Shown here: positions 19,851 to 38,642 of the stretch, one piece after another
How the letters are laid out: every line of letters begins with the position of its first letter
Numbering within the stretch: position 1 is the stretch's first letter
IMG/VR virus record: IMGVR_UViG_3300020037_009719
Span: 1,663 to 65,662 of that record
Strand: one strand, 5' to 3'
From: a virus
DNA length: 64,000 bases
Notes under the pieces: model-generated
Told to the model about the DNA's origin: nothing
The model's input: only the letters and a program-made list of their open reading frames with translations
The model's database searches: none
Made by a program: the position numbers and the translations under genes

Positions 19851-19883
19851 AAAGCCGCTAGGTTGTTTACTTTAGCGGCTTTA
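19851..19883 (+). terminator. terminator hairpin overlapping promoter-like motif
   Basis: aaagccgcta-ggttgtttact-ttagcggcttt, 10-bp perfect stem. Confidence 0.5.
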
Positions 19884-19890
19884 TCTTTAG
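19865..19890 (+). promoter_or_regulatory. conserved bipartite motif GTTTAC-N11-TATCTTTAG (copy upstream of the vWA gene)
   Basis: Exact GTTTAC and TATCTTTAG separated by 11 nt; one of 7 copies. Confidence 0.5.
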
Positions 19891-19914
19891 TTAAATTTAA
19901 AAATCAATACTCAT

Positions 19915-21894
19915 ATGAAAAAAATAGGTTCAGCATCAGGTCCTTCTAAGGCTTCAAAACATTTAGGAAAAAAAATGTTTTCTCGTGATAAAAAACTTGA
20001 AGATAAAAAAATTACTAAACCTTTAGAAGAGGTACATCCAGATGAGAAATTTTATAACGTTGACAAAAACGAATTAGAAGAAGTAATGTCTTCTAAAAAC
20101 CGTACGTCAAGTTACTGGTTGCCAGAAACAGATATTCCTGATTACTTTGTGTTACAACGTATGATGAAAAACATTAATACTGTTTGTGGTTTTATCACTG
20201 GAAAAGCATTGAGAGTTAATTTCTCTGAGATTGATGGTCCAAGTCATGCAGATTTTGCTGGTGAAGAAATTACTATTTCTATCGGCTCATTATATGACTA
20301 CCGTATTCCTTTCCATATGAGATTGAATATTGTTTTAGCTTTAGGTATTCATGAATCTTGGCATGTAAAATATACTACTCCTGCTATGGAGAGAATGTTA
20401 GTGCAAAATGGTTTAACAAAAAGTAAAATTTCTCGTTTTGGATTTGGTAAAACTCAAAAAGTTGCAGACTTTAGCCAAAGTGGTAAACTTTTCAAACATA
20501 ACTTCCAAACATTTTTAGCAAATTGTGTTGAAGATAGACGTATTGAACATTTAGGGTTAATTGATTACCCTGGGTATGTTTACTACATGGAAGAGTTTCG
20601 TAAATACGGGTTGTGGTGTAACATTAATGCTTTGTTAAACCCTGTAACTAAACCAGATTGGAATAACCCAGACCATTTTTATGGTGCATTAACACAATAC
20701 ATTGCATTTAAAAATGTAGCTCCAGAAATCTTACCAGTATTTGCTTCTTATGGACCGAATACAAAAGAATTCAAAGCTTTAACAGATAAAGTAGATGCAA
20801 TTTGTAAAGACGTTCCATTAACTTACGATGACACAATGTCACAGTCTTTAGAATTGTTGAAATTGTATCCTGACGAGCAAAAAAACAAACAAGCTAAGGA
20901 AAAAAATTGTAACGGAGATGGTAACGGTAAAAATCAAGGACCACAAATGGCAGAAGGAACTGCTGCTGATGGTAAAACTGTAAAACCAAGTAAAGACGAA
21001 AAAGAAGCAATTGGTGACATAAAAGACGATAATCAACCTTATGCTACTTCTGAGCAAAAAGATATTAAAATTGAAGATCGTTTTGACAAACATGACCAAT
21101 ACAGCCACGTTCATATTGAACCTGCAGCAGAAGGTCGTTTTGACCAAGCTGTTTTTGACCAAGCAAGTGAAATTGCTCGTCAAATTAGCAAAAATTTATC
21201 TTTCTTAGATTCACGTTTCAATCGTGTAACAGAAGCTTTTGAAATGAGAAATGGTGAATTGGATGAGGATGCAATCTTTGGTTTAAAATTCAACAAGGAT
21301 ATTTTCTACGAAGAAGAAGAAGCTCCAGGTTACTCAATGGATTTTGGAATCTTGATTGATGAGTCTGGTTCAATGCACGGTAGCAAAATTCGTGATGCTA
21401 AAATTGCTGCATTAGCTTTAGCAATTGCTTTGAAAGACAATCAACATATTAATTTATTTGTTTACGGTCACACAGCAAATACGGGAGGTCACCCAATTAC
21501 AATGTACAAATACTTTGACCAATTAGAAAAAGGTTGCCAAGATATTTCAACATTGTTTTCAGTAGAAGCAAGATCTAACAATGCAGATGGTTATGCAATT
21601 TCTGCAATGGGAGATATCTTAAACAAAGGTAAATCAAGACAAAAAGTTTTAATTGTTGCATCTGACGGTCAACCACACGCATCAGGTTACGGTGGAAGAC
21701 AAGCTAACCAACATACTGCTCAAATGGTTCAAAAACTTGAAATGCAAGGAATGTTTGTTTGTCAAATTGCAATGGAAAACTTTAACTCTGCTGAAATGTT
21801 TACAAACTTTGTTCCTTATGACAAAAACAGCTTAGGAGTTAACTTGAAAAAAGTGTTGTTAAAAAAATTAGTAGAAATCTCAAACTTAGTATAA
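19915..21894 (+). CDS. von Willebrand factor A domain protein (CobT/NorD-like partner of the AAA+ ATPase)
   Basis: C-terminal MIDAS motif ILIDESGSM; long acidic central region. Adjacent to the MoxR-like gene. Confidence 0.7.
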   Translation: MKKIGSASGPSKASKHLGKKMFSRDKKLEDKKITKPLEEVHPDEKFYNVDKNELEEVMSSKNRTSSYWLPETDIPDYFVLQRMMKNINTVCGFITGKALRVNFSEIDGPSHADFAGEEITISIGSLYDYRIPFHMRLNIVLALGIHESWHVKYTTPAMERMLVQNGLTKSKISRFGFGKTQKVADFSQSGKLFKHNFQTFLANCVEDRRIEHLGLIDYPGYVYYMEEFRKYGLWCNINALLNPVTKPDWNNPDHFYGALTQYIAFKNVAPEILPVFASYGPNTKEFKALTDKVDAICKDVPLTYDDTMSQSLELLKLYPDEQKNKQAKEKNCNGDGNGKNQGPQMAEGTAADGKTVKPSKDEKEAIGDIKDDNQPYATSEQKDIKIEDRFDKHDQYSHVHIEPAAEGRFDQAVFDQASEIARQISKNLSFLDSRFNRVTEAFEMRNGELDEDAIFGLKFNKDIFYEEEEAPGYSMDFGILIDESGSMHGSKIRDAKIAALALAIALKDNQHINLFVYGHTANTGGHPITMYKYFDQLEKGCQDISTLFSVEARSNNADGYAISAMGDILNKGKSRQKVLIVASDGQPHASGYGGRQANQHTAQMVQKLEMQGMFVCQIAMENFNSAEMFTNFVPYDKNSLGVNLKKVLLKKLVEISNLV

Positions 21895-22532
21895 TGGCTG
21901 AAAAAAAAGAAGACGGTAAAGGGAGAAAACTTCCCTTTACTATCAAATACGAAATCGAAGAAACTGCAGATGGTGCAGATGTAAACTTTAAGCTTGAAAA
22001 CAGCGAAGAAGATCGTTTGTTTGCTTACATGGTTACTTTATGGGACCTTAGTCAATTACTTGACAGAGCAATGGATGATAAACGTATTCCAACAGAAGTA
22101 AAAGCAGATTTCTTAACAGCTGCTAAGATTTTGAAAGATATGACCCAGGCTTGTAAAATGAAAGTAGAAGAAAAGCTTAAAATGGGAACTGAAACAACTA
22201 TCATGGAAAGATTACAAAAACTTTTCAAAGATGTAGCAGGTGACATGAATGAAGAAAATCCTTTCAAAGATTTAAAAGACCTAGGTAAAGATGGAATGAA
22301 ACCATCTAAGGTAGTCATCGGTGGAGATGTTCCAGAAGAAATTCGACAACAACTTGAGGATGCTCTCAAAGCACAATTCGGTGAAGATATTGACATCGGT
22401 AACATGTCAAAAAAAGAAACTGAAGAACTTATCAGTAAACGAAAATCAAAAGGTGAAAAGTCTGACGATGAAGTTGACTTTGATGATTTAGATAAAAAAT
22501 CAAATAAAGATTCATCTGATATTGATATGTAA
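21894..22532 (+). CDS. hypothetical acidic protein
   Basis: 212 aa, strongly acidic especially at the C-terminus. Confidence 0.5.
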   Translation: MAEKKEDGKGRKLPFTIKYEIEETADGADVNFKLENSEEDRLFAYMVTLWDLSQLLDRAMDDKRIPTEVKADFLTAAKILKDMTQACKMKVEEKLKMGTETTIMERLQKLFKDVAGDMNEENPFKDLKDLGKDGMKPSKVVIGGDVPEEIRQQLEDALKAQFGEDIDIGNMSKKETEELISKRKSKGEKSDDEVDFDDLDKKSNKDSSDIDM

Positions 22533-22536
22533 AAAA

Positions 22537-22648
22537 TAACTGAAACTGTAACAATTAAAAAAGTATTATGTAGAGTTACAGGGTTGAGGACCGAATAGGG
22601 GGGCTACATCTTCAGGAATCGGCTTAGACCTGTTATAGTTTCAGTTTA
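22537..22648 (+). other. structured intergenic element: GC-rich core flanked by 17-bp inverted repeat
   Basis: aactgaaactgtaacaa ... ttgttatagtttcagtt (16/17 complementary) enclose gggttgaggaccgaataggggggctacatcttcaggaatcggcttagacc. This core is far more GC-rich than its surroundings. Confidence 0.4.
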
Positions 22649-22659
22649 ATTTTAAAGTT

Positions 22660-23040: not shown

Positions 23041-23041
23041 A

Positions 23042-23431
23042 ATGAACTTAGAAAGTATTATCCTTTTTATAAGTATTGTTGTTATACATTTTATTGCTGA
23101 TTTCATTTTCCAGGATGAGAAATGGGCAGTAGGAAAAAGTCATTCTATAAAACTATTAACTTTACATGTTAGTATGTATACAACTGTATGGTTTATGTTT
23201 TGTAACTTTTACTGCTATGCAACAGGGAATTATATGATATATTTTTTAGTTCCGATAACTTTTGTTTCACATTGGTTAACAGATTACTTTACTTCTAAAG
23301 TCACAAGTCGTTTATATGCTGAAAAGAAATTCGGCTCATCTATACCTAATTTAAGTTTCTTTACAATGATTGGATTTGACCAAGTGTTACATTATATTCA
23401 ATTATTCTTAACTTTTTATTTTTTAAGTTAG
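23042..23431 (+). CDS. hypothetical membrane protein
   Basis: Hydrophobic helices. Confidence 0.45.
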   Translation: MNLESIILFISIVVIHFIADFIFQDEKWAVGKSHSIKLLTLHVSMYTTVWFMFCNFYCYATGNYMIYFLVPITFVSHWLTDYFTSKVTSRLYAEKKFGSSIPNLSFFTMIGFDQVLHYIQLFLTFYFLS

Positions 23432-23437
23432 TTTGTA

Positions 23438-23463
23438 GTTTACAAGGTTTAAAGTATCTTAAG
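23438..23463 (+). promoter_or_regulatory. GTTTAC-N11-TATCTTaAG promoter-like motif
   Basis: One mismatch to the consensus; 14 nt upstream of the ATG at 23477. Confidence 0.4.
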
Positions 23464-23476
23464 GTAAAATTAAAAT

Positions 23477-24003: not shown

Positions 24004-24528
24004 ATGAAAGAAGTAAGATTATGTGCTAATCAAGAGTGTGGTAAAGAGTTCACTGTTTGGTCTTCACAAAAGAAGAGATATTGTTGTAGAAAGTGCACAA
24101 TGACTTTAGAAAGGCGAGAGTCAATAAGACAAGAGAAAACTGGAAAACCAAACCCCAAAGTATCAATTGCACTGAAAAATTCTATTTCAGCTAAAAAATA
24201 TCAATTTAAAAAGGGAAAAGACAATCCAGCATTTGGACGAAATCAAACAGGTGAAGCAAATCACAATTGGAAAGGTGGAAAAACAAATAAGAATCAAAAA
24301 TTAAGAAATAGTCCACAGTATAAAATTTGGCGACAAGCTTGTATGGAACGAGATCACTTTCAATGTACTGATTGTGGTGCAAAGGGATATTTACAAGTAC
24401 ATCATATAAAAGAGGTCTCTAACTACCCTGAACTTATTTGGGAACTTGATAACGGAAAAACAGTTTGCGTGTCGTGTCACGAAAAAATACACGGAAGATT
24501 TATAGGAAAATTTAAACAACAAAAATAA
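24004..24528 (+). CDS. HNH homing endonuclease
   Basis: N-terminal Cys-rich region; HHIKEVSNYPE...NGKTVCVSCHEKIH HNH motif. Confidence 0.75.
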   Translation: MKEVRLCANQECGKEFTVWSSQKKRYCCRKCTMTLERRESIRQEKTGKPNPKVSIALKNSISAKKYQFKKGKDNPAFGRNQTGEANHNWKGGKTNKNQKLRNSPQYKIWRQACMERDHFQCTDCGAKGYLQVHHIKEVSNYPELIWELDNGKTVCVSCHEKIHGRFIGKFKQQK

Positions 24529-25421
24529 TGGAAAATAAAAAAAAATATGCCTGTATAAGTTTATCAGGTGGGATGGACTCTTCTACTTTACTTCTTAAAT
24601 TGTTAGTTGAAGGTTATAATGTTACTGCTTTATCTTTTAATTACGGTCAAAAGCACTCTGTAGAATTAGAAAGAGCAACTGAATTAGTGAAATATATTAA
24701 ATCAGATTCAAAAGGGGCTGGAAAAAGACAATCTGGAACTTTAACTCATCAAATTATTAAACTAGATGGTTTAGGACAATTGTTAAATTCAACTTTAGTT
24801 GAAGGTGGTTCAGATGTTCCAGAAGGGCATTATGCTGAAGAAAATATGAAAGACACGGTTGTGCCAAATCGTAATAAAATATTTTCTTCAATTATTCAAG
24901 CAGTTGCTTTATCTATAGCAGAACAAAATAATACTGAATGCGCTATTGCTATGGGTATTCATGCTGGTGATCATGCTATCTACCCTGATTGTAGACAAGA
25001 GTTTAGAGATGCAGATTTTGAAGCTTTCAAACAAGGTAATTGGGGGTCTGAAAAAGTAATCATCTATACTCCTTATCTTCATACTGATAAATTCGGTATT
25101 TTAGAAGATGGGTTAGTTTGTTGTGAAAAGTTAAGTTTAGATTTTAACGAAATATATAAACGTACTAATACAAGTTATAAGCCAATTTTTATCAGAGAAG
25201 TTTCTAAACAAACAATAGACGATAAAGACTATTACACCCCTGAAAGTAATGGTAAATGGTATTCAGATTATAAGTCAGCAAGTTCGGTAGAACGAATAGA
25301 AGCATTTATTAAATTAGGTAAACAAGACCCAGTTGAATATGCTGATGAAACAGGACCTGTTTCATGGGAAACAGCAAAAGCTTATGTAGAGAAAGTTCTC
25401 GCTGAACATAGTAATAAATAG
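24528..25421 (+). CDS. queC: QueC-like PP-loop ATP pyrophosphatase (7-cyano-7-deazaguanine synthase family)
   Basis: ISLSGGMDSST (SGGxDS PP-loop), FNYGQKH, VPNRNKIF, YPDCRQEF all align to E. coli QueC. The C-terminal CxxC Zn cluster is absent and the C-terminus is extended. Confidence 0.7.
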   Translation: MENKKKYACISLSGGMDSSTLLLKLLVEGYNVTALSFNYGQKHSVELERATELVKYIKSDSKGAGKRQSGTLTHQIIKLDGLGQLLNSTLVEGGSDVPEGHYAEENMKDTVVPNRNKIFSSIIQAVALSIAEQNNTECAIAMGIHAGDHAIYPDCRQEFRDADFEAFKQGNWGSEKVIIYTPYLHTDKFGILEDGLVCCEKLSLDFNEIYKRTNTSYKPIFIREVSKQTIDDKDYYTPESNGKWYSDYKSASSVERIEAFIKLGKQDPVEYADETGPVSWETAKAYVEKVLAEHSNK

Positions 25422-25440
25422 TTAAATTATTTTAAATTAA

Positions 25441-25474
25441 GAACCTACGCTACGCGTAGGTTCTCCTTGTTTTT
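25441..25474 (+). terminator. rho-independent terminator
   Basis: gaacctacgc-tac-gcgtaggttc 10-bp stem plus T-tract. Confidence 0.65.
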
Positions 25475-25501
25475 AACGTTTTTTGTTATTTTCGGTAGGA
25501 A

Positions 25502-25527
25502 GTTTACAAGTTTAACCATATCTTTAG
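25502..25527 (+). promoter_or_regulatory. GTTTAC-N11-TATCTTTAG promoter-like motif
   Basis: Exact consensus; 24 nt upstream of the ATG at 25551. Confidence 0.5.
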
Positions 25528-25550
25528 ATTATAAATTAAAACATATAGCA

Positions 25551-25891: not shown

Positions 25892-26071
25892 ATGGCAAAG
25901 AAAAAAGAAATTATCAAATTTGACCCCGAAGAAGTTAGAAAAGGGTTAAAAGGTATTCGCAGACAAGAAGAAATTGATAACCAATTGCGAATACCTACTC
26001 ATACTGTTCAAAAAAGTAAAAAAGAATACACTCGTAAACGTAAACATAAGAAAAATTTTGAAGTTGAATAA
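25892..26071 (+). CDS. hypothetical small basic protein
   Basis: 59-aa Lys/Arg-rich ORF below the track threshold. Confidence 0.35.
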   Translation: MAKKKEIIKFDPEEVRKGLKGIRRQEEIDNQLRIPTHTVQKSKKEYTRKRKHKKNFEVE

Positions 26072-26143
26072 TTTTATATATCTTTAGTAAAAAATAAATT
26101 TAAAGTTCTGAACCTCGCATTACATATACACCTTGTTATACAC
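26072..26143 (+). promoter_or_regulatory. leader of cassette array: TATCTTTAG -10-like box plus a GTTRRRY-like half site
   Basis: atatctttag at 26080-26090; acatatacaccttGTTATAc at 26122-26143 matches the right arms of the downstream inverted-repeat elements. Confidence 0.35.
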
Positions 26144-26199
26144 AGTACGGTTTATTAATGTTGAATGCTGATACAAAGAATAATTAAAATTAAAAAAAT

Positions 26200-26532
26200 A
26201 TGCACAAACAAAAGGAAGTAAAAATAAATGTTGATGATAAAATACAACCACTAATTCAATTTATATTTGATAGATTAACTGGTTTGATACCAATAGCATC
26301 TTGTATAGGTGGAGATGAATCACAAAACGAAAGTATGGATTGTTATATACTACTAATAGTTAGGAATCATAATCATCTAAATCATCTAATGGATTTATGT
26401 TCATCTTGGCATTGTCAGTATATCAAACCAAATGGTGAAACTGGAAATGTACCAACATATAGAATAAGTATTTCTAATTTAAACGATGTGTTGGATAAAT
26501 TGAATTTGATAGATGAAAATTATATTTTTTAA
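26200..26532 (+). CDS. hypothetical protein (first array ORF)
   Basis: 110-aa ORF, preceded by a 9-codon uORF in the cacggtttattaATG motif. Confidence 0.45.
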   Translation: MHKQKEVKINVDDKIQPLIQFIFDRLTGLIPIASCIGGDESQNESMDCYILLIVRNHNHLNHLMDLCSSWHCQYIKPNGETGNVPTYRISISNLNDVLDKLNLIDENYIF

Positions 26533-26646
26533 TTTACACCGAACTTAATTTGATACACGAATATAGTATTGTGTATAACGTTCGGGCGGTTGGCGTTCGT
26601 TGCCGACTTTGGAACAAGAAACTTTAACTTTAAAAATAAATTTGAT
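26533..26646 (+). repeat. degenerate inverted-repeat element (attC-like, divergent)
   Basis: ccgaac-ttaatttg-atacac ... gtgtat-aa-cgttcgg inverted repeat; ATAACGttcgg and ggttggcg echo the CTAACGGTTGGC motif. Confidence 0.35.
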
Positions 26647-26889
26647 ATGGAAAACAAAACTTCAACAAGCCACGAAAACGGCAATGACGCTAACCGCTTG
26701 TTAGCACCAGTTATTTTTTGGCAACGCTTTGACCAAGTTAAACCACAAGGCGATGCGGAATATTTGGTGTGCAATACAGATGGCGTTATTCGAGTTAGTT
26801 ACTTTGATGGCAAAGATTGGGGATATTTAGCTATTGTAAAAGAAAATATTACGCATTGGTCAATACTTCCGAGTGTGCCAGTCATATAA
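26647..26889 (+). CDS. hypothetical protein (cassette ORF, GC-richer than the genome)
   Basis: 81-aa ORF from ATG 26647 (track start 26569 lies inside the repeat). Contains an internal GCTAACcgcttGTTAGC mini-palindrome. Confidence 0.45.
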   Translation: MENKTSTSHENGNDANRLLAPVIFWQRFDQVKPQGDAEYLVCNTDGVIRVSYFDGKDWGYLAIVKENITHWSILPSVPVI

Positions 26890-26893
26890 TTGG

Positions 26894-26986
26894 TGCTAAC
26901 GGTTGGCAATATATGTAGTTGCCATGCACGAACTTAAAAATTAAATATAAACCTTAATAGGCAATTACATATATTGCTTGTTAGCA
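26894..26986 (+). repeat. attC-like imperfect inverted repeat element 1
   Basis: Left arm tgCTAACggttggcaatatatgtagttgcc; right arm ggcaattacatatattgcttGTTAGCa. Arms pair 7+12+5 nt with ggttg/aa asymmetry (3-nt bulge). Confidence 0.6.
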
Positions 26987-26998
26987 AATCGTAAAATT

Positions 26999-27154
26999 AT
27001 GGCATCAGAGAAGAAAAAACGTAAAGCAGATAAAAGACTTCATTGGGGTAGAGGTAAGAACTTCATGAAGTGGGTTGGTAAAGGCATCAAAGGTCTTTGT
27101 TATTTCACATCATCTCAAAGACAAGCAGATAAGAAGTTCGACATTGACGAATAA
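26999..27154 (+). CDS. hypothetical small basic protein (cassette ORF)
   Basis: 51-aa ORF MASEKKKRKADKRLHWGRGKNF... between two attC-like elements. Confidence 0.35.
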   Translation: MASEKKKRKADKRLHWGRGKNFMKWVGKGIKGLCYFTSSQRQADKKFDIDE

Positions 27155-27163
27155 TTTTATGTT

Positions 27164-27257
27164 TGCTAACGGTCGGCAATATGAAATGGTTGCCTTGTAA
27201 GACGTTTAAAATTTAGTAATAGCCTATCGGCAACTTTTTTATATTGCTTGTTAGGCA
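27164..27257 (+). repeat. attC-like imperfect inverted repeat element 2
   Basis: tgCTAACggtcggcaatatgaaatggttgcc ... ggcaacttttttatattgcttGTTAGGCa; same bulged architecture. Confidence 0.6.
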
Positions 27258-27271
27258 CAGTAATTTATCAA

Positions 27272-27529
27272 ATGAAAATATATCAAACAAATGCAGCACT
27301 TGGTTATAGACAACTTGCATTTCTAATTAGATTAGATAAAAGTGCGAATGGACACAACTACCTATGTATAGGCACACAAAATATTAATGACAACGAAATG
27401 TATCAAATTGGTAAAATAGTTGAAGATTTAGAAGATTTTTATTTGGAAGATACAACTTTCAAAATAACTGATTCTGAATTAAACGGAACTTATCTGTTTG
27501 ATTACTGGGTTTCTCATTATTGTGCCTAA
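27272..27529 (+). CDS. hypothetical protein (cassette ORF)
   Basis: ATG 27272 (track start is TTG inside the repeat). Stop TAA lies inside the GCCTAAC inverse-core-like motif. Confidence 0.45.
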   Translation: MKIYQTNAALGYRQLAFLIRLDKSANGHNYLCIGTQNINDNEMYQIGKIVEDLEDFYLEDTTFKITDSELNGTYLFDYWVSHYCA

Positions 27530-27618
27530 CGGTTGGGTGTATGAGAAGGTTTGCTTAGATGAACTTTCAAATTAATACAAATACATGTAGCAAACTTTCT
27601 TATACACCTTGTTATATG
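27524..27618 (+). repeat. attC-like imperfect inverted repeat element 3
   Basis: GCCTAACggttgggtgtatgagaaggtttgct ... agcaaactttcttatacaccttGTTATAt. Confidence 0.6.
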
Positions 27619-27652
27619 CTTGCACGGTTTATTAATGATAAAATTAATTAAA

Positions 27653-27985
27653 ATGAAAAAGTTTAAATTTGAAGATTTACAATTAATTAATGTAGGCGAT
27701 ATTTATGCTATTACTTATAACGATAAAATAATTACCCTTGAAGGTAAAACCACATTTTCGACAATAAGTAATGCGAAAAATATGCTTCAAAAAGTATTAA
27801 CTGCTAATTATCATCAAGGACATTATTGGCACAAAGGTAAAGAAAATACCTTTTCTGATGAAGGTGGGCATATGAGAAACGGGGGTGTTATGGCTGGTTT
27901 GGATAAAATATTTAAAAAATTAGGCAAAGAACTAACTGAAGAATTACTTTCTAATGGCGTTTTTGTGATTAAAAAAATACAATAG
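27653..27985 (+). CDS. hypothetical protein (cassette ORF)
   Basis: ATG after the conserved cacggtttattaatg motif. Confidence 0.45.
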   Translation: MKKFKFEDLQLINVGDIYAITYNDKIITLEGKTTFSTISNAKNMLQKVLTANYHQGHYWHKGKENTFSDEGGHMRNGGVMAGLDKIFKKLGKELTEELLSNGVFVIKKIQ

Positions 27986-28013
27986 TAATTTAGTAGCACG
28001 TTTGTAGTGCTTG

Positions 28014-28107
28014 CATATAACGGCTTGGTGTATGAGAAGGTTTGCTTTGATGAACTTCAAATTTACACTGAACTTGATAGCAAACTTTCTCATACACCTT
28101 GTTATAG
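28014..28107 (+). repeat. attC-like imperfect inverted repeat element 4 (near-duplicate of element 3)
   Basis: cATAACggcttggtgtatgagaaggtttgct ... agcaaactttctcatacaccttGTTATAg. Confidence 0.6.
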
Positions 28108-28151
28108 TTAGTTTTATTTTTTATTTTACAAAATTATAAATTTTCATAGAT

Positions 28152-28451
28152 ATGACTGAAGAACAAATGAAAGAATATGTAGTAAATGGTGGAAAACTTT
28201 TTACTATCACTTTGATTGACACTATTAGAGATGGTGGAACAAAGATTATAAAAACAACAAAAGACGATTATTATATCCATAAGGATAGTAAAAAGTTTCA
28301 TTCTGGTTACACACCAAGTGAAGAAAATTTAATAACAGATTTTTTGTTAATAGAATACTTGGTTGAACGAATTGAAACATACATCAAAAGATGTGTGGAA
28401 GATGTTGAACGAAACAAAAATCTGTTAATAGAAATTCAAAATAAAAAATAA
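28152..28451 (+). CDS. hypothetical protein (cassette ORF)
   Basis: 99-aa ORF. Confidence 0.45.
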   Translation: MTEEQMKEYVVNGGKLFTITLIDTIRDGGTKIIKTTKDDYYIHKDSKKFHSGYTPSEENLITDFLLIEYLVERIETYIKRCVEDVERNKNLLIEIQNKK

Positions 28452-28457
28452 TATTAA

Positions 28458-28529
28458 CTATAACGGTTCGCAGATAAGCGAAGGCAAAGATTTAGAAACT
28501 AAAATTTTAACTTAAAAACAGAATATAAT
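28458..28529 (+). repeat. degenerate attC-like element 5
   Basis: ctATAACGGttcgcagataagcgaaggc hairpin; right arm not recognisable. Confidence 0.3.
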
Positions 28530-28778
28530 ATGAAAACGAGAACATCAATTTACCACCGCACCTTTGCTTTTGCTTATGTGCTGTTAGTAGCTGTTATTTT
28601 TTGCGGTTGCGAAGGTAACGTAGAGCAGAAATCAACACCATATAGGCTTAGTGGCGGTCTTAATGTAGAAATAGTGATAATTGATAGTTGCGAATACATC
28701 ATAATAAATGGTGGAAATGCAACTTGGGGAAGCCACAAAGGGAACTGTAAATTTTGTGCAGAACGTAGCAAAAAATAA
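28530..28778 (+). CDS. putative lipoprotein (cassette ORF)
   Basis: Signal peptide with an FCGC lipobox-like cysteine; GC-richer. Confidence 0.45.
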   Translation: MKTRTSIYHRTFAFAYVLLVAVIFCGCEGNVEQKSTPYRLSGGLNVEIVIIDSCEYIIINGGNATWGSHKGNCKFCAERSKK

Positions 28779-28780
28779 TT

Positions 28781-28879
28781 GCTACTAACGTTTTGCGTAT
28801 ATACGAGGTACGCCTTAACGAAAATTTCAAATTATAAACAAATGCTTGTAGGCGTATCTTGTATATACGCTGTTAGGCG
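28781..28879 (+). repeat. attC-like imperfect inverted repeat element 6
   Basis: gctaCTAACgttttgcgtatatacgaggtacgcc ... ggcgtatcttgtatatacgctGTTAGGCg. Confidence 0.6.
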
Positions 28880-28890
28880 AAGTACTTATT

Positions 28891-29130
28891 ATGGATTTTA
28901 GAAAAACATTAAAATACCTACGCATTGTGCAAACGGTATCAAACGAAGAAAGGCACAAACAAGGATTGAAAAGATTAGGTCGTGGCTATTTCAATGCACA
29001 CAGATTTAACCCTTACAATCCGCTTAGTTACATAGCACTCATTATTATACTAATTGTAGGTATATTAATGTTTGGCTTTGTCGGATTTTGGAAAGAAACT
29101 ACAACGCTCAATCCGTTTCGGTGGGATTAG
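28891..29130 (+). CDS. hypothetical membrane protein (cassette ORF)
   Basis: 79-aa ORF with a C-terminal TM helix. Confidence 0.45.
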   Translation: MDFRKTLKYLRIVQTVSNEERHKQGLKRLGRGYFNAHRFNPYNPLSYIALIIILIVGILMFGFVGFWKETTTLNPFRWD

Positions 29131-29136
29131 TATTTC

Positions 29137-29213
29137 GCCTAACGGTATCAAGCTAAAAGCTGACCGCCTTTATAAGCGGTTTGGTGATGGCGGTTTGATT
29201 TTAGGTTGTGTTA
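29137..29213 (+). repeat. attC-like imperfect inverted repeat element 7
   Basis: GCCTAACggtatcaagctaaaagctgaccgcc ... ggcggtttgattttaggttgtGTTATAt. Confidence 0.5.
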
Positions 29214-29238
29214 TATTTAGGTTTTTAAATTTTTAGCG

Positions 29239-29448
29239 ATGGAAGAAATGATAAATTGTAAATGCGAAAAATGCGGAGTTGATTACGAGAAACCTGCAAC
29301 TTTCAAAAAATGGAATGAAGAAAATACAAACGTGTTTTTTAGATGGAGTTTAGCATTTTGCGATATGTGCAGGCGAGAAAAAGAACGTGAAGCATTGAAA
29401 GCATTACCAAATGTTTTGAGTGCGTTGGCAGAAAATTTAAAAACTTGA
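29239..29448 (+). CDS. hypothetical Cys-rich small protein (last array ORF)
   Basis: 69 aa with CxC...CxxC...CxxC. Confidence 0.4.
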   Translation: MEEMINCKCEKCGVDYEKPATFKKWNEENTNVFFRWSLAFCDMCRREKEREALKALPNVLSALAENLKT

Positions 29449-29510
29449 ATATAACATAAATATATAACAACTGTCTTTTAAAACAGTAATAAAATTAACA
29501 GTTTTAAGTC

Positions 29511-30326
29511 ATGGAAACACTCATTGAAAGTAAAGTTAATCGATTTGTTGAAAAGTTAGAGTTAAAACGTTACTCTAAAAACACAAAAAATATATATCTT
29601 TCAAACTTTAAATCTTTTTTAAACTATTTTAAAGGAGATATAGATAATTTAAAAGATTCAGATATTTGTAATTATATTTTAACACAATCTAAAAACAAGT
29701 CGTACTCTTATCAAAATGTGTTAACAAATACTATTAAATTTTATTACGAAAAGGTAAATTATAGAAAAAGAAGGTTTTATAAAATAGAAAGACCTAAACA
29801 AGAAAGAAAGTTACCACAAGTGATTTCTAAAGAAGAAGTTTTAAAATCTATAGAGTTAATACCTAATTTAAAACATAAAGCAATAATTTCACTAGCTTTT
29901 TCTACTGGAATGAGAGTAAGTGAGATATGTAATTTGAAAATAGTAGATATTGATTCAAAGAGAATGATTTTAAGAATTTTAGATAGTAAAGGTAAAAAAG
30001 ATAGAATAGTTCCTTTATCTGAAAGTATACTAACTTTGTTGAGAAGTTATTGGCAAGAATATAAACCTAAATTTTATTTATTTGAATCCTATAAACCTGG
30101 GGTTAAATATTCGACAGCGAGTTGTAGACAAATATGGAATAAATATAAAATAAATAAGCAAAGTACTTTTCACACTCTTAGACATAGTTTTGCTACAACT
30201 ATGTTAGAAAATAAAACTGATATTAGGACAATTCAAAGACTTTTAGGTCATTCTAATTTGAAAACAACAGAAATATATACCCACGTTTCTACTGATTATT
30301 TGAAAACTTTAAAGTTACCTATATAA
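29511..30326 (+). CDS. tyrosine site-specific recombinase (integrase/XerC-D family)
   Basis: MRVSEI (Arg I), HTLRHSFAT (HxxR), LLGHS, IYTHV (catalytic Tyr). Confidence 0.8.
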   Translation: METLIESKVNRFVEKLELKRYSKNTKNIYLSNFKSFLNYFKGDIDNLKDSDICNYILTQSKNKSYSYQNVLTNTIKFYYEKVNYRKRRFYKIERPKQERKLPQVISKEEVLKSIELIPNLKHKAIISLAFSTGMRVSEICNLKIVDIDSKRMILRILDSKGKKDRIVPLSESILTLLRSYWQEYKPKFYLFESYKPGVKYSTASCRQIWNKYKINKQSTFHTLRHSFATTMLENKTDIRTIQRLLGHSNLKTTEIYTHVSTDYLKTLKLPI

Positions 30327-30352
30327 ACATATTGATTTTATTAAGGTTTGAA

Positions 30353-30378
30353 GTTTACTAATTATACTGTATCTTTAG
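30353..30378 (+). promoter_or_regulatory. GTTTAC-N11-TATCTTTAG promoter-like motif
   Basis: Exact consensus; 24 nt upstream of the ATG at 30402. Confidence 0.5.
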
Positions 30379-31311: not shown

Positions 31312-31412
31312 CCAGTTAAAGTAAAAAAAAGGTATTAGTTGAATGTCTTTTTAATACATTTAGGTCTAAATTAAAAGTGAAAATAATTATTAACTAAAAA
31401 CAAAAAGCAAAG

Positions 31413-32606: not shown

Positions 32607-32624
32607 AAAGTACATAAATAAAAA

Positions 32625-32656: not shown

Positions 32657-32663
32657 ATCTATT

Positions 32664-32999: not shown

Positions 33000-33514
33000 T
33001 GATAAAACCTAAGGTACCGTCTTTTTTTAAAGTGATAGCAATATCTATTATCTTTTCTTATTTCTTTGGAAAGCTTCAAAACAAAACAATTAATGTTTTA
33101 GAGTACCCTGTAAAGAAAGAAACTAATCTTTTTATTGAAAAAGAACTTACACCTTATTTAGATACTTTTCTTCTTGAGTCTAAGTATTATAATTATTCCC
33201 CTTCTAGAGTTTTCTACCTAGATACAATCCAATACGGTGTTTTACCTGATGGTGTTGCTGGTCAAACTTCTCTTTCAATACGAAGAGATACATTGCATGG
33301 TGTAATAACAATCAGTAGTGAGTATAGTAAAGACCTTATAAACAGTCGGCAGATATTTTACCATGAAGTAGGGCATTGGTTAGGTTTAGAACATGAACAA
33401 AACATTATTATGATAGAAGGTTACGATTTCACTGATACTTCTTGGGTTAATATGTTTGGAAGAAACTGGGAAACTTTAACATACCAATATTTTAAATCTC
33501 TCAAAGCTCTATAA
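32999..33514 (+). CDS. metzincin-type zinc metallopeptidase (HExxHxxGxxH)
   Basis: HEVGHWLGLEH motif; N-terminal hydrophobic segment. Confidence 0.55.
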   Translation: MIKPKVPSFFKVIAISIIFSYFFGKLQNKTINVLEYPVKKETNLFIEKELTPYLDTFLLESKYYNYSPSRVFYLDTIQYGVLPDGVAGQTSLSIRRDTLHGVITISSEYSKDLINSRQIFYHEVGHWLGLEHEQNIIMIEGYDFTDTSWVNMFGRNWETLTYQYFKSLKAL

Positions 33515-33570
33515 CTTACGCTGCGCGTAGATTTCTCTTATTTTCATTTTTTTGTTATTTTTAGTAGGAA

Positions 33571-33596
33571 GTTTACTAATTTAACTGTATCTTTAG
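33571..33596 (+). promoter_or_regulatory. GTTTAC-N11-TATCTTTAG promoter-like motif
   Basis: Exact consensus downstream of a tacgc-tgc-gcgta hairpin; 38 nt before the ATG at 33634. Confidence 0.5.
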
Positions 33597-33633
33597 GTAT
33601 CTTAATTAATCAAACAACCTAAACTTACAATTT

Positions 33634-34662: not shown

Positions 34663-34672
34663 ATTGTTGGAA

Positions 34673-34698
34673 GTTTACAAGTTAATGCATATCTTTAG
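34673..34698 (+). promoter_or_regulatory. GTTTAC-N11-TATCTTTAG promoter-like motif
   Basis: Exact consensus; 27 nt upstream of the ATG at 34725. Confidence 0.5.
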
Positions 34699-34724
34699 AT
34701 TATAAATTTAAAACATATACACCT

Positions 34725-35795: not shown

Positions 35796-35798
35796 AAT

Positions 35799-36110
35799 AT
35801 GCTAAAACAAGTTTTTTTAAAAGCACAAATAGTTAAAGGGGAGTTAGTACTAACTCCCCTTAATTATCAAGGGTTAGTTAACGACTGTAAAGTCAAAACA
35901 ACTAAACAGTTAACATTAGGTAAGTACTATCAAGCTGATTTAGTATTGGTAAATAAAGAATTCATTGTAGATGAAAAAACTTTATCTGAATTATCAAGTG
36001 CTCCTATGAAAGGATTTGTTTACGGTAAAACAGATAAACTGCAAAAAGCTCTGAAGGAGAACAAAGTTATCTTAGGGAGAAGTAACGATAATTATTTAAT
36101 TCAACTATAA
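35799..36110 (+). CDS. hypothetical protein
   Basis: 103-aa ORF. Confidence 0.4.
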   Translation: MLKQVFLKAQIVKGELVLTPLNYQGLVNDCKVKTTKQLTLGKYYQADLVLVNKEFIVDEKTLSELSSAPMKGFVYGKTDKLQKALKENKVILGRSNDNYLIQL

Positions 36111-36396
36111 TAAGAAAAGTAACTAACCTAGTTAAACAAATAAATTAAATAAAAAGTTGGTTCTAAACAAATAAGTTTCCAAATTTAGGTCATATTTAAA
36201 AGATGTATTAACAGAATTAAGATTACTAACAGCAATTTTATTTTATTCGGAAAAAAAAAAGATAGTAATCTGTAATATAAAACAACAATGAAAAATATTA
36301 ATAAATATAACGGCAATTATTTTAGAGGGTTTAAAAACCTTTCTACCGCCAAGGTATTTGTTAATTAACAAAACATAAGTTGTTTTAACATTTAAA

Positions 36397-36428
36397 AACC
36401 TTGGTAGAAATATCAAGGTTTTTTTATT
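36397..36428 (+). terminator. hairpin plus T-tract immediately upstream of the tRNA cluster
   Basis: aaccttg-gtagaaatat-caaggtt then T7; a related half-copy (aaaaacctttctaccgccaagg) lies 60 nt upstream. Confidence 0.4.
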
Positions 36429-36433
36429 TTTAA

Positions 36434-36505
36434 TGCGTTCTTAGCTGAGGTGGTTTAGCATTTGGTTGAAGCCCAAAAGACACTGGTTCGACTCCAGTAG
36501 ATCGC
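36434..36505 (+). tRNA. tRNA-Phe (GAA)
   Basis: Manual cloverleaf: acceptor GCGTTCT/AGATCGC (1 mismatch), D GCTG/TAGC, anticodon stem TTTGG/CCAAA, loop TTGAAGC, T arm ACTGG-TTCGACT-CCAGT. Confidence 0.75.
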
Positions 36506-36511
36506 ACAATA

Positions 36512-36585
36512 TGATTCTGTAGCTCAGTTGAATAGAGCAATTGCCTTCTAAGCAATAGGTCAAAGGTTTGAATCCTTTCAGAATC
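36512..36585 (+). tRNA. tRNA-Arg (TCT)
   Basis: Acceptor GATTCTG/CAGAATC, D GCTC/GAGC, anticodon ATTGC-CTTCTAA-GCAAT, T AAAGG-TTTGAAT-CCTTT. Confidence 0.75.
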
Positions 36586-36597
36586 ACTTAAAATAAA

Positions 36598-36679
36598 TGC
36601 CGACGCGCTAACGTTGGAGGGTTAGGACAGTCTGTAAAACTGTTACATAAGTCTAGTAGGTTCGAATCCTATCGGCGGC
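36598..36679 (+). tRNA. tRNA-Tyr (GTA), class II with 12-nt variable arm
   Basis: Acceptor GCCGACG/CGGCGGC (1 mismatch), D CTAA/TTAG, anticodon ACAGT-CTGTAAA-ACTGT, T GTAGG-TTCGAAT-CCTAT. Confidence 0.7.
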
Positions 36680-36762
36680 ACTAGCAGAACACAACTGCTG
36701 AAACAAATAGGTGATTCAGTTATCGGTGAGCAAGTCTGAACTAAAACAAAATGTTGCTTAAT

Positions 36763-36839
36763 GGACATATAGCTCAGCTGGTAGTAGCAAATGATTGTTA
36801 ATCATTAGGTCGTAGGTTCGAACCCTACTATGTCCGCCA
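36763..36839 (+). tRNA. tRNA-Asn (GTT) with encoded CCA
   Basis: Acceptor GGACATA/TATGTCC, anticodon AATGA-TTGTTAA-TCATT, T GTAGG-TTCGAAC-CCTAC, then G-CCA. Confidence 0.75.
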
Positions 36840-36848
36840 AGTAAACAA

Positions 36849-36934
36849 GCGAGTGTCGCATAGAGCCCGATTGCACCTGACTTCCAATCAGGAAAGATAA
36901 AATCACAACGCAGGTTGAAATCCTGTCGCTCGCT
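36849..36934 (+). tRNA. aberrant tRNA-like gene (anticodon TCC, Gly?) with 17-nt AT-rich extra arm
   Basis: Acceptor GCGAGTG/CGCTCGC (G-U), anticodon CCTGA-CTTCCAA-TCAGG, T GCAGG-TTGAAAT-CCTGT, 3-bp D stem. Variable region AAAGATAAAATCACAAC is atypical for tRNA-Gly. Confidence 0.45.
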
Positions 36935-36978
36935 CTCAGCCAGTTGTTAAATCTGGTGAAAATTAAAACTTAACAAAC

Positions 36979-37051
36979 GCAAAAATAGCTCAATTGGTAG
37001 AGCGTTGCCTTGCCAAGGCAAAGGTTGTGAGTTCGAGACTCATTTTTTGCT
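36979..37051 (+). tRNA. tRNA-Gly (GCC)
   Basis: Acceptor GCAAAAA/TTTTTGC, D GCTC/GAGC, anticodon TTGCC-TTGCCAA-GGCAA, T GTGAG-TTCGAGA-CTCAT. Confidence 0.75.
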
Positions 37052-37052
37052 C

Positions 37053-37169
37053 TGTGATATAGCTCAGCTGGCAGAGCGGCCCCGTGTAAAGGGGAAGGTC
37101 GTGGAATAAGTGAAAACTTGTTGCTTCTATATACGTATAGAATTGGGTGTTCGAATCCCACTGTCACAA
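37053..37169 (+). tRNA. tRNA-like gene interrupted by ~44-nt palindrome-containing insertion in the T-arm region (pseudo-tRNA or intron-like)
   Basis: Acceptor TGTGATA/TGTCACA pairs perfectly; D GCTC-AGCTGGCA-GAGC; anticodon hairpin CCCC-GTGTAAA-GGGG. Removing aataag...gaattgggt (with a tatacgtata palindrome) restores T arm GTGGG-TTCGAAT-CCCAC. Confidence 0.45.
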
Positions 37170-37184
37170 CTAAAAAATAAAATT

Positions 37185-37379
37185 ATGTGGTCTGAAGATC
37201 AAGTGAAAGAATTCGTTCACAAGAGAGTTAAAGAGTTGTCAACAAACCCTTCTGCAATTGCTTTAGGGTCTTATTACAAAGGTTGTGATTGGCGCTTTGA
37301 TAAGTTAAGAGCTTTTTGTGAACAGGAAGTAAAAAATTATACGCAAGAACTATTAAGAAAGAAACAACAAAAAACATGA
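37185..37379 (+). CDS. hypothetical small protein
   Basis: In-frame ATG just after the tRNA cluster; the track start 37110 lies inside the tRNA-like gene. Confidence 0.4.
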   Translation: MWSEDQVKEFVHKRVKELSTNPSAIALGSYYKGCDWRFDKLRAFCEQEVKNYTQELLRKKQQKT

Positions 37380-37597
37380 GTAACGTTTATAGTAAATTAG
37401 ATAGGTTAAATCAATTGGAAGATGAAAATATAAAAAGTTTTGTTAAATTAGCAAGACGTGTTTTAAAAACTAAAAATCCAAGTAGAGATGTGCCTGAATA
37501 TTTTCAGAAAGATAAAAAAGTAAAAAAAGAAATTAAAAAAATGAGAACAAAAGCAATAATAAAGAAATCTAAGAAACCTGACGAACAGGGCACTTAA
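37376..37597 (+). CDS. hypothetical basic protein
   Basis: 73 aa, Lys-rich. Confidence 0.4.
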   Translation: MSNVYSKLDRLNQLEDENIKSFVKLARRVLKTKNPSRDVPEYFQKDKKVKKEIKKMRTKAIIKKSKKPDEQGT

Positions 37598-37622
37598 CTA
37601 TTGTTTAAATTCTAAACGAATA

Positions 37623-37658
37623 ACCCAAGTGTCTTAGTTGATAACTTGGGTTTTCTTA
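37623..37658 (+). terminator. rho-independent terminator
   Basis: aacccaagt-gtcttagttgata-acttgggtt 9-bp stem followed by a T-run. Confidence 0.65.
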
Positions 37659-37659
37659 T

Positions 37660-37700
37660 GCTTCTATGGCGAGAAGGGCGCGCAATATACTTTTTATCAA
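37660..37700 (+). other. candidate 5' tRNA fragment partner (speculative)
   Basis: GCTTCTA can pair (one G-U) with TAGGAGC of the 3' tRNA half at 38402-38408; the GCGAGAAGGGCGC hairpin is D-arm-like. Confidence 0.2.
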
Positions 37701-37759
37701 AGGGAATATTTCTAACTTGAACTATATTTAATAGAAAACAACTTAAACGTAGTTCGATA

Positions 37760-38371
37760 ATGAAATGTCAAAGTGTAAAATGTGAAAAAGAGCATGATGG
37801 TAAATATGGGAGCGGGAAATATTGCTCAAGACAATGTGCTAATAGTAGAACTTGGTCAGAGGAAGATAAGTTAAAAAAATCCAATTCTGCTAAAAATAGC
37901 AAAAAAGTTTTAACTCGAAGTTGTGAATGTTTATATAAATTAAAAGCTGCAGCGTTAAAAAAAAGTGAAAAAGCAAAGGAGGAAATTTTAATAGCGAATT
38001 GGGAAGATCTATCTTTTGAACGATTAAGAAAAAGAGTTATTTGGGAACAAAACGAATGTTGTGCAACTTGTGGGATAAGTGAGTGGAGAGGAAAAAAAAT
38101 TTCACTAGAATTAGAACATAAAGATGGAAACCATTCGAATAACGCAAAGGAAAACTTAGAAGCATTATGTCCAAACTGTCATAGTTTAACAACTACTTGG
38201 AGAGGGAGAAATAAATCAAGAAAAGTAAAAAAAATCTCAGATGAAGATCTATTAATATCTTTAATTGAAAACAATTGGAATATGAGACAAGCTTTACTTA
38301 ATCTTAATTTAGCTGCAAAAGGAAGTAATTATAAAAGATGTCATAGGGTAAAAAGAATGATAGATTCTTAA
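37760..38371 (+). CDS. HNH homing endonuclease
   Basis: CATCGISEW...LELEHKDGNHSNN...LCPNCHSL HNH motif; an N-terminal Cys cluster. Confidence 0.75.
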   Translation: MKCQSVKCEKEHDGKYGSGKYCSRQCANSRTWSEEDKLKKSNSAKNSKKVLTRSCECLYKLKAAALKKSEKAKEEILIANWEDLSFERLRKRVIWEQNECCATCGISEWRGKKISLELEHKDGNHSNNAKENLEALCPNCHSLTTTWRGRNKSRKVKKISDEDLLISLIENNWNMRQALLNLNLAAKGSNYKRCHRVKRMIDS

Positions 38372-38379
38372 TAAAACAC

Positions 38380-38409
38380 ATGGGTGATGGTTCGATTCCA
38401 TCTAGGAGC
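38380..38409 (+). pseudogene. 3' tRNA half (T arm plus acceptor strand) with no contiguous 5' half
   Basis: GATGG-TTCGATT-CCATC then TAGGAGC-A; it begins 9 nt after the HNH stop codon. Confidence 0.5.
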
Positions 38410-38489
38410 ACTCAGGTTTGAACTTTGATTATTTGAGCATTGACAAGGTCAATTAGACCTAACAAGATAGCTGAGTAAATAATCATTAT

Positions 38490-38562
38490 GACCTCGTAGC
38501 TCAATTGGCGGAGCACTATACTTTTAATATAGGGGTTATGGGTTCAAGTCCCATCGGGGTCA
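38490..38562 (+). tRNA. tRNA-Lys (TTT)
   Basis: Acceptor GACCTCG/CGGGGTC (G-U), D GCTC/GAGC, anticodon CTATA-CTTTTAA-TATAG, T ATGGG-TTCAAGT-CCCAT. Confidence 0.75.
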
Positions 38563-38616
38563 CAATTATTTTTATTTCTTACCTAGGGTTATATTCCTAT
38601 AACTTATGGGTTTTTA

Positions 38617-38642
38617 GTTTACTTATTAAGTGCTATCTTTAG
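38617..38642 (+). promoter_or_regulatory. GTTTAC-N11-TATCTTTAG promoter-like motif
   Basis: Exact consensus; 20 nt upstream of the ATG at 38662. Confidence 0.5.

Follow-up and report, generated by a model that had tools for sequence, protein, structure and literature searches.

A candidate promoter family of primary-sigma-type geometry with an added GTTTAC box in a T4-like jumbo phage

A rigid two-box motif, GTTTAC followed 11 nt later by TATCTTTAG, recurs between genes in a 64,000-nt stretch of viral DNA (positions 1,663 to 65,662 of IMG/VR record IMGVR_UViG_3300020037_009719, one strand; this whole stretch is called the window below), and raises the question of what the motif is and what reads it. 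The argument is built on the anatomy, distribution and conservation of the motif and on its place at insertion/deletion (indel) junctions, all observed directly in this analysis. We conclude that the motif is almost certainly a promoter family, and put at a little better than even the chance that these are promoters of primary-sigma type, read by the host polymerase through a host-type sigma and supplemented by a lineage-specific GTTTAC box.

A search for GTTTAC-N11-TATCTTTAG that allowed two mismatches at most recovered seven sites in the window, at 19865, 23438, 25502, 30353, 33571, 34673 and 38617, all on the + strand. Six are exact; that at 23438 has TATCTTAAG as its second box. Chance would give 0.47 sites (standard deviation 0.63), and among 100 shuffled sequences the maximum was two, none reaching seven. 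A weight matrix derived from the seven copies scores them at 26–35 bits, with the next best window site on either strand at 14.5 bits. All seven copies are intergenic and end 14–38 nt 5' of a + strand ATG. The length of the 11-nt spacer is fixed in 7/7 window copies and in 23/23 promoter-like copies of a wider set from this and related phages, while its letters vary. Common flanks extend the likeness: GGAAGTTTAC is present at three sites, GAAGTTTAC at four, and ATTATAAATT(T)AAAAC follows three. A preliminary description, made from the sequence before this analysis, had reported the same seven positions, the distance to the + strand ATG, the invariant spacing and the shared flanks, and each of these is borne out here.

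The copies differ in the bases 5' of GTTTAC, which are given first for each. Copy 1 (19857..19890; GCTAGGTT) precedes the ATG at 19915 of a vWA protein, assigned by a vWA domain match; copy 2, the one with TATCTTAAG and hence a mismatch (23430..23463; AGTTTGTA), precedes a 92-residue protein of unassigned function (ATG 23477); and copy 3 (25494..25527; GGTAGGAA) a 112-residue membrane protein (ATG 25551). Copy 4 (30345..30378; GGTTTGAA) stands before a 188-residue protein (ATG 30402), copy 5 (33563..33596; AGTAGGAA) before a RadA/RecA/DnaB-like ATPase (ATG 33634) and copy 6 (34665..34698; TGTTGGAA), which has TTG 20 nt 5' of the TATCTTTAG box, before a 356-residue protein kept in relatives (ATG 34725). 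Copy 7 (38609..38642; GGTTTTTA) lies 3' of a tRNA-Lys gene and 5' of the ATG at 38662.

As set out below, the window comes from a T4-like jumbo phage; of its ~220 kb genome, ~135 kb was read (the window, L253, the L163 extension, L257, L124 and L267/L268; handles of this form denote loci from the viral contigs). Loci L115, L116, L123, L124, L257, L267 and L268 are other parts of this genome. Carrying the motif search beyond the window, as had been proposed, gave seven further strong copies, at L253:5055, L257:5551, L257:15838, L257:16150, L124:5488, L116:4822 and L116:5933. All 14 strong copies lie 15–38 nt 5' of a start codon in the orientation of the gene; three opposite-strand copies serve small genes inside the head-gene module and are still oriented with those genes. 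None of the 14 precedes a recognised virion gene. The motif is thus specific in strand and position, tracks gene orientation on the – strand also, and often stands behind a terminator, which is the promoter-like behaviour that the preliminary description had proposed.

Outside this phage the motif is rare. One genome each of 185,579 bacterial species yielded 34 single matches to the extended motif, spread across many phyla and for the most part with a coding-like context, and among these 34 there was no host promoter or prophage signal; the earlier claim that the motif is phage-specific holds on this evidence. Searches of viral contigs with the bare 15-base motif returned merely single chance matches in coding DNA, and in the literature primers were the sole matches to the box sequence. 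The motif does occur in other metagenomic phage lineages, with seven copies in 5.8 kb of L200 and one each in the L184 group, L170 and L226. No protein common to the window phage and the L200 and L184 lineages was found on their small contigs.

Comparisons with closer relatives indicate that the two boxes are under selection. In L263 (~80% DNA identity) the orthologous copies keep both boxes and the spacing, with changed spacer letters. Across copy 5, divergence from L189 shifts from 12% in the upstream gene to 5% in the downstream gene, with 0 changes in the 72 nt of promoter and leader. Since spacers diverge while boxes and spacing stay fixed, conservation is not just a result of recent copying. 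The upstream box varies by lineage: it is GTTTAC in the window phage, in L263 and at one L260 site, TTTTAC at the other L260 site, GTT[TA][AG]C in L200 and GGT[TA]AC in L264, with TATCTTTA constant throughout.

This pattern bears on the proposal that the motif is not a promoter, and that recombination or mobile-cassette repeats, repressor operators or an RNA signal have been kept by duplication only. Divergence of spacers and flanks around fixed boxes points to selection instead, and the strict position and orientation relative to start codons (14/14) and the pairing of the box with a –35-type TTG at 20 nt in related phages (below) are those of promoters. The copies do bound indels, and cassettes share ~100 nt of homology; in addition, GTA-N7-TAC in AGTAGGAAGTTTAC is weakly palindromic with its centre near –30, and repressors often bind near –30. 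The two boxes are not complementary to each other and the only Rfam matches are tRNAs, with no non-tRNA family, so that an RNA element is unlikely. Overall we regard a non-promoter origin as very improbable.

The anatomy of the site was derived from an alignment of the 23 promoter-like copies, the core columns of which are fixed by the search pattern. The eight positions that directly precede GTTTAC have the consensus A-G-T-(A/T)-G-G-A-A; T is present in 23/23 and the two G residues in 19/23 and 18/23. The middle of the spacer is AT-rich, and 3' of the second box come a TATAAT/TATAAA-like stretch and an A-rich leader. Further evidence comes from a comparison set of 79 viral loci that have a QueF homologue in common with the window phage and contain 187 unique TATCTTTA sites. 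In these, TTG peaks sharply 20 nt 5' of TATCTTTA (25/187 sites, where the background is ~3), giving the consensus aAGTTG-N20-TATCTTTA, and AAGTTG is paired at exactly 20 nt in 28 unique sites.

TTG-N20-TA is the geometry of primary-sigma promoters, as in TTGACA-17-TATAAT of E. coli and TTTG-19-TAnnTTTG of Bacteroidota. The preliminary description had taken the 11-nt spacing to be too short for a host sigma-A promoter. This objection fails, because TATCTTTA pairs with AAGTTG 20 nt upstream in relatives, at the canonical distance. As AGT(A/T)GG occupies the –33 slot immediately 5' of GTTTAC, we conclude that GTTTAC does not stand in for the –35 element but is an additional box. In the seven window copies the –33 slot reads TTTG in copies 2 and 4 and TTGG in a third, TAGG in three and TTTT in one.

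Mapping in Flavobacterium places the –7 box at –12 to –5 (PMC9723704); by analogy, TATCTTTA would lie at –12 to –5 and GTTTAC at about –29 to –24. Promoters of F. johnsoniae have a weak –33 element and clear AT-rich motifs at –18 and –28 (Baez et al., PMC6847099; also PMC9723704), one and two helical turns from the –7 box (PMC6847099). In the phage sites, TTTA within GTTTAC falls on –28 and the AT-rich central part of the spacer on –18, which gives a simple explanation for the rigid 11-nt spacing. In the F. johnsoniae –7 box TAnnTTTG (TAHHTTTG), T-12, A-11, T-8, T-7, T-6 and G-5 are nearly invariant (PMC6847099). Compared with TAHHTTTG, TATCTTTAG fits at T, A, H, H, T, T and T; A replaces G-5 and the G follows one base later. 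Given that F. psychrophilum has a promoter class TAnnTTGY, in which TA-to-G is one base shorter and which serves a distinct gene set (PMC9723704), such a one-base shift could mark a promoter class.

Promoters lacking the extra box are also found in the window. One (4158..4193, +) has TTG-N20-TATCTTTAC at 4162–4193 without GTTTAC, behind a strong terminator hairpin at 4125–4160 and before the ATG at 4241; another (3259..3293, +) has AAGTTG-N19-TATATTTAG, again without GTTTAC, before tRNA-Met (3336). With plain TTG-N19/20 and GTTTAC types both in the window, the phage carries at least two upstream architectures. TAnnTTTAG is enriched 5.4-fold upstream of window genes, its intergenic sites number 13 on one strand versus 1 on the other, and weaker GTT(T/G)A(A/C)-N10-11-TAnnTTTAG variants are present. 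Two weak overlapping variants, GTTTAA-N11-TAAATTTAG and TTTTAC-N11-AATTTTTAG, lie at 13961..14018 (+) before the ATG at 14044; GTTGAA-N11-TACATTTAG at 31338..31363 (+) precedes the SPFH gene (ATG 31413); and GTTGCA-N11-TATCTTTAG at 42212..42237 (+) overlaps the last codons of the open reading frame (ORF) 41046–42281, 59 nt from the ATG at 42296. A degenerate copy, GAAGTTGAA-N10-TATCTTTAG at 26060..26087 (+), marks the left boundary of a 4.25-kb insert and is likely the promoter of the cassette array within it. From these plain promoters and weaker variants it follows that the seven copies are the sharpest members of a broader family.

The identity of the phage was established by exact-protein look-up. 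The window gp32-like gene is at position 55,003 on a 219,579-bp metagenomic contig, Ga0206652_1000002, and a portal protein from a motif-bearing viral contig is found, 100% identical, at 135,488 on the same contig, beside a large terminase, a T4-type prohead protease and a Gp23-type capsid protein. Because portal and window genes share this contig, we take the window to be part of a ~220 kb T4-like jumbo phage. The T4-type genome is confirmed by matches to Portal_T4 (1.9e-57), Gp23 capsid, prohead protease S77 and TerL, and the contig also encodes a gp32-like protein, a T4 baseplate protein and a UvsX-like RecA. Window positions 1–7055 lie beyond the start of Ga0206652_1000002, their left neighbour being seen on short contigs only; this offset would fit a circularly permuted genome that was opened at different points in different assemblies.

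The window has ~30% G+C, with coding almost wholly on one strand. Its genes include those for a DnaE-type and a PolA-like polymerase, a MoxR ATPase, the vWA protein, QueC, an HNH nuclease, a tyrosine recombinase, the SPFH and gp32-like proteins and a baseplate protein with a Gp10-like C-terminal domain, together with nine tRNAs. Megablast found no close cultured relatives, the DNA polymerase III alpha subunit giving at most 33% identity, and viral contigs queried with the ATPase gene yielded no relatives; by portal, the nearest cultured phage is a Microcystis phage (31% identity). Only 5/80 window genes have a Shine-Dalgarno-like motif, and an A peak is seen at –12/–13 before start codons. Bacteroidota lack Shine-Dalgarno sequences, as do some Cyanobacteria (PMC6847099), and the host is probably, not certainly, a member of the Bacteroidota.

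In the model that we favour, the site opens at its 5' end with AGT(A/T)GG (about –37 to –32) and AA, followed by GTTTAC (about –29 to –24). An 11-nt spacer, AT-rich near –18, then leads to TATCTTTAG, behind which comes a short leader that is A-rich and has no Shine-Dalgarno sequence. An RNA polymerase with a two-domain sigma of the sigma-70 family, most likely the host primary sigma, would read the –7 box and the –33 slot. GTTTAC would be a lineage-specific extra box two helical turns 5' of the –7 box, where Flavobacterium has its AT-rich –28 motif, and would mark one co-regulated class of early or middle non-virion genes, either by directly strengthening polymerase binding or as the site of a phage factor. 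The promoter cassettes, several of them terminator and promoter pairs, would double as recombination joints for the gain and loss of gene blocks.

Several observations weigh against assigning these promoters to a host primary sigma. Promoter activity and start site, and with them sigma identity and timing, are inferred from sequence and not from transcription data. The host may lie outside the Bacteroidota, some Cyanobacteria also being without Shine-Dalgarno sequences (PMC6847099) and the nearest cultured phage by portal (31%) infecting Microcystis, and the TTG-N20-TA geometry is equally of E. coli type. The search pattern sets the core of the alignment and, for sites from the genome and metagenome scans, two or three upstream bases (RAA) likewise. 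Upstream of window genes the canonical TAnnTTTG shows no enrichment (0.8-fold, compared with 4.3-fold in six control Bacteroidota loci), and every copy carries A at –5 followed by G at –4, whereas F. johnsoniae promoters almost always have G-5 (PMC6847099). The –33 slot is mostly TAGG and not TTG, and GTTTAC is more conserved than the slot. Finally, the search for a phage recogniser described below covered ~135 kb of the ~220 kb genome, and sigma factors are reportedly encoded by all jumbo phages of the gp23 type (PMC7824862).

Conservation of GTTTAC above that of the –33 slot is the pattern expected of activator-dependent promoters. In such a scheme a phage protein bound at GTTTAC (about –30) would recruit the host polymerase in the manner of T4 MotA/AsiA, and the host sigma would be unable to use the degenerate –33 element unaided. 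The geometry equals that of T4 middle promoters, in which a MotA box with GCTT at –30 to –27 is followed by N11-13 and the –10 element (PMC1524935); GTTTAC ends 11 nt before TATCTTTAG in 23/23 sites, the match being one of geometry only. GTTTAC does not vary, whereas most copies have TAGG in the slot, and the upstream box changes with lineage (GTT[TA][AG]C in L200, GGT[TA]AC in L264) over a constant TATCTTTA. Relatives with a good AAGTTG at N20 are without the GTTTAC box, and one phage carries plain and GTTTAC-type promoters together. On the other hand, a –33-like element has been kept at the canonical distance, ordinary Flavobacterium promoters have their AT-rich –28 motif where the GTTTAC box lies, the ORFs of L200 and L184 encode no protein in common with the window phage, and Pfam and PHROGs identified no MotA, AsiA or recognisable DNA-binding regulator in the ~135 kb of the ~220 kb genome. 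We treat activator dependence as a tentative and rather unlikely alternative.

The preliminary description had attributed the motif to a phage-specific promoter class recognised by a phage sigma or RNA polymerase. The phage-specific class stands; as for the recogniser, Pfam, PHROGs and NCBIfam revealed no gene for a phage sigma, RNA polymerase, MotA, AsiA or helix-turn-helix protein in the ~135 kb read. Direct recognition of GTTTAC and TATCTTTAG by a phage-encoded sigma or polymerase would account for the departure of the –7-like box from the host consensus at G-5, which the late box TATATTTAA (below) shares, and for the occurrence of the exact motif in bacterial genomes at no more than chance. 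The gp23-type (T4-like) jumbo phages examined by Iyer et al. all encode sigma factors, some of them RpoD-like (PMC7824862), and such a gene could lie in the remaining ~85 kb. None was found in the window or in ~70 kb more, and the TTG-N20-TATCTTTA of relatives has the geometry of a primary-sigma promoter. The promoters of single-subunit polymerases do not resemble a bipartite site whose spacer varies, and the extracytoplasmic function (ECF) sigma pattern (AAC at –35, CGT at –10, spacer 16–17) is not matched. Early genes, if they are in the window, would also need transcription before any phage sigma is made, and canonical host boxes show no enrichment in the window. Recognition by a phage-encoded sigma or polymerase appears rather unlikely to us on this balance.

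Some other candidates were dropped. Promoters of E. coli type show no enrichment in the window, with 84 found and 86 expected. Read as an ECF-sigma site, GGAAGTT-N16-TCTTTA resembles the E. coli sigma-E consensus only loosely; ECF promoters have AAC at –35, a 16–17 nt spacer and CGT at –10, these AAC and CGT cores are absent here, and no sigma gene was found in the ~135 kb read. GTTTAC does not fit the restriction-site-like palindrome GTYRAC. An NtcA-like GTA-N8-TAC fails on spacing (N7 here) and position, and its GTA half is only partly conserved.

The proposal that the motif defines a temporal regulon is plausible. The motif occurs only at non-virion genes, and the head genes of the window phage and of three relatives are preceded by a different box, (T)ATATTTAA(T/A), without an upstream partner. 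Sites of this type lie upstream of the terminase, portal, protease and capsid genes in L257, L260, L261 and L262, and the same box is found as TATTTAG in the window at 45829, 46529, 46860, 1558 and 5500. The T4 late promoter likewise has no upstream partner box, and by analogy with T4 TATAAATA the TATATTTAA box is a probable late-promoter class. The timing itself, early or middle for the GTTTAC genes and late for the virion genes, is suggested by this division of genes.

Terminator-like hairpins are associated with three of the seven window copies, at 19849–19884 around copy 1, at 25440–25464 before copy 3 and at 33516–33530 before copy 5; no clear hairpin was seen at the other four. GTTTAC of copy 1 sits in the loop of its terminator hairpin (19849–19884), and an intrinsic-terminator-like hairpin with a T run (25440..25474, +) forms the upstream half of the copy-3 cassette. 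The L116:4822 copy also has a hairpin. Three cassettes, at window 25442–25546, window 33510–33609 and L116 4803–4903, are 76–79% alike over ~100 nt between unrelated flanking genes. Behind L116:4822, and presumably driven by it, lies a gene (L116 3164–4804) for a 546-residue protein with a repeat-rich N-terminal part, a transmembrane segment and a SiaA-like SpoIIE/PP2C phosphatase domain (E-value 1.5e-50); phosphatases of this type often control sigma/anti-sigma partner switching.

Two gene-block differences from L263 are tied to these cassettes. A 4.25-kb block (26088..30352, +), with nine small ORFs, attC-like repeats and a tyrosine recombinase, is missing in L263. It is flanked by the degenerate copy (26060–26087) and by copy 4 (30353–30378), and the L263 junction has a single hybrid copy, with a left flank like that of the degenerate copy and a right flank like that of copy 4. 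A second indel relative to L263, 38592–42712, has its left edge at copy 7 (38617). As the cassettes are repeated, they probably act as recombination joints.

The interior of the 4.25-kb block has features of its own. Between 26100 and 30330, the nine small + strand ORFs are separated by repeats of 105–166 nt that open with (G/T)C(C/T)TAAC and close with GTTAG(G/C); folded as single strands, these form long imperfect hairpins with a short unpaired spacer (z-scores –2.2 to –6.9). Integron attC sites have the form RYYYAAC ... GTTRRRY. At the end of the array is a 271-residue tyrosine recombinase like Xer and integron integrases, which scores 168 bits with TIGR02249 and 207 bits with a XerA/IntI model, both below cut-off. 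By its sequence, the block resembles an integron-type cassette array carried by a T4-like jumbo phage. Within the 38592–42712 block, likewise missing in L263, are two paralogues of phrog_2475, at 39271–40497 (408 residues, E-value 1e-65) and 41046–42281 (411 residues, 4e-62).

Other features of the genome were also noted. QueC is encoded at window 24528–25421, adjoined by an HNH endonuclease gene (24004–24528) that is missing in L263, and further que genes, QueF-like, QueE-like (radical SAM) and QueD (PTPS), lie elsewhere in the same genome, at L116 8088–9005 and at L268 4273–5193 and 6324–6800. These dispersed genes suggest that the phage DNA carries a 7-deazaguanine modification. At the end of the tRNA cluster, a 117-nt tRNA-like Rfam match (37053–37169, 35.2 bits) that is absent from the ARAGORN calls may be an intron-bearing or degenerate tRNA. 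A type IX secretion system sorting signal was suspected as a host marker in L124:760–1704, and NCBIfam and Pfam gave no confirmation.

To our knowledge, nothing is known of gene timing in T4-like jumbo phages apparently infecting Bacteroidota. The present results offer a promoter grammar for this uncultured clade, comprising plain AAGTTG-N20-TATCTTTA promoters, a class with GTTTAC added and a probable late box, TATATTTAA, that could be used to annotate transcription units in metagenomic phages and to design expression parts for Bacteroidota. They also extend mobile promoter-terminator cassettes beyond the phages of Proteobacteria and Cyanobacteria, with a recombination junction visible base by base. 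Should GTTTAC depend on a phage factor, this would add to the known cases of host polymerase takeover. The Bacteroidota primary sigma is unusual in being without region 1.1, and we offer as a speculation, improbable on present evidence, that GTTTAC binds an unrecognised phage protein that retargets this sigma, the cassettes serving both as portable promoters and as recombination joints. Were this true, T4-style sigma appropriation would have been invented independently, and the cassettes would move gene blocks that include the integron-like array.

The primary-sigma promoters of Bacteroidota have –33 TTTG and –7 TAnnTTTG (Bayley 2000, Vingadassalom 2005 and Chen 2007, cited in PMC6847099 and PMC9723704). 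Like these, the phage sites have a –7 box, TATCTTTA, that fits TAnnTTTG at 7/8 positions, T-(A/T)-G-G in the place of TTTG 19–20 nt upstream (AAGTTG-N20-TATCTTTA in relatives), AT-rich sequence near –18 and –28, and an A-rich leader without a Shine-Dalgarno sequence. They differ in having A and then G in place of G-5, a constant TC at the two free positions of the –7 box, mostly TAGG in the –33 slot and an invariant GTTTAC at about –29 to –24, and in that the canonical box is unenriched in the window.

Promoters of T4 itself offer partial parallels. T4 middle promoters consist of a MotA box, N11-13 and TAtaaT and depend on sigma appropriation by MotA/AsiA (PMC1524935); the phage sites resemble them in having a box near –30 and 11 nt from a –10-type element, in a T4-like lineage and before non-virion genes, whereas the box is unrelated to TGCTTtA, no MotA/AsiA homologue was found in ~135 kb, and a –33-like element is present. 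T4 early promoters have the identical hexamer GTTTAC at –36 to –31, separated by ~17 bp from TATAAT (PMC1524935), and likewise form a uniform phage-specific class before small early genes and tRNAs. Here, in contrast, the spacer is 11 nt and the downstream box is of another type; identity with T4 early promoters was dropped on account of the spacing, and the common hexamer is probably a coincidence.

The closest parallel to the cassettes is offered by PeSLs (promoter-early stem-loops), which combine a terminator with a promoter and by which T4-type phages shuffle their modules (Arbiol 2010, PMC2839356; Comeau 2014, PMC4122927). In both cases a T4-like genome carries short, repeated composites of terminator hairpin and promoter between small genes of unassigned function, and indels between close relatives start or end at these cassettes. 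The present cassettes are unlike PeSLs in sequence and host group, in having a hairpin at only three of the seven window copies and at L116:4822, in bounding one block that resembles an integron array with its own recombinase, and in that early timing is here inferred. What is new is a variant of Bacteroidota promoters and of T4 PeSLs, both of which were already known.

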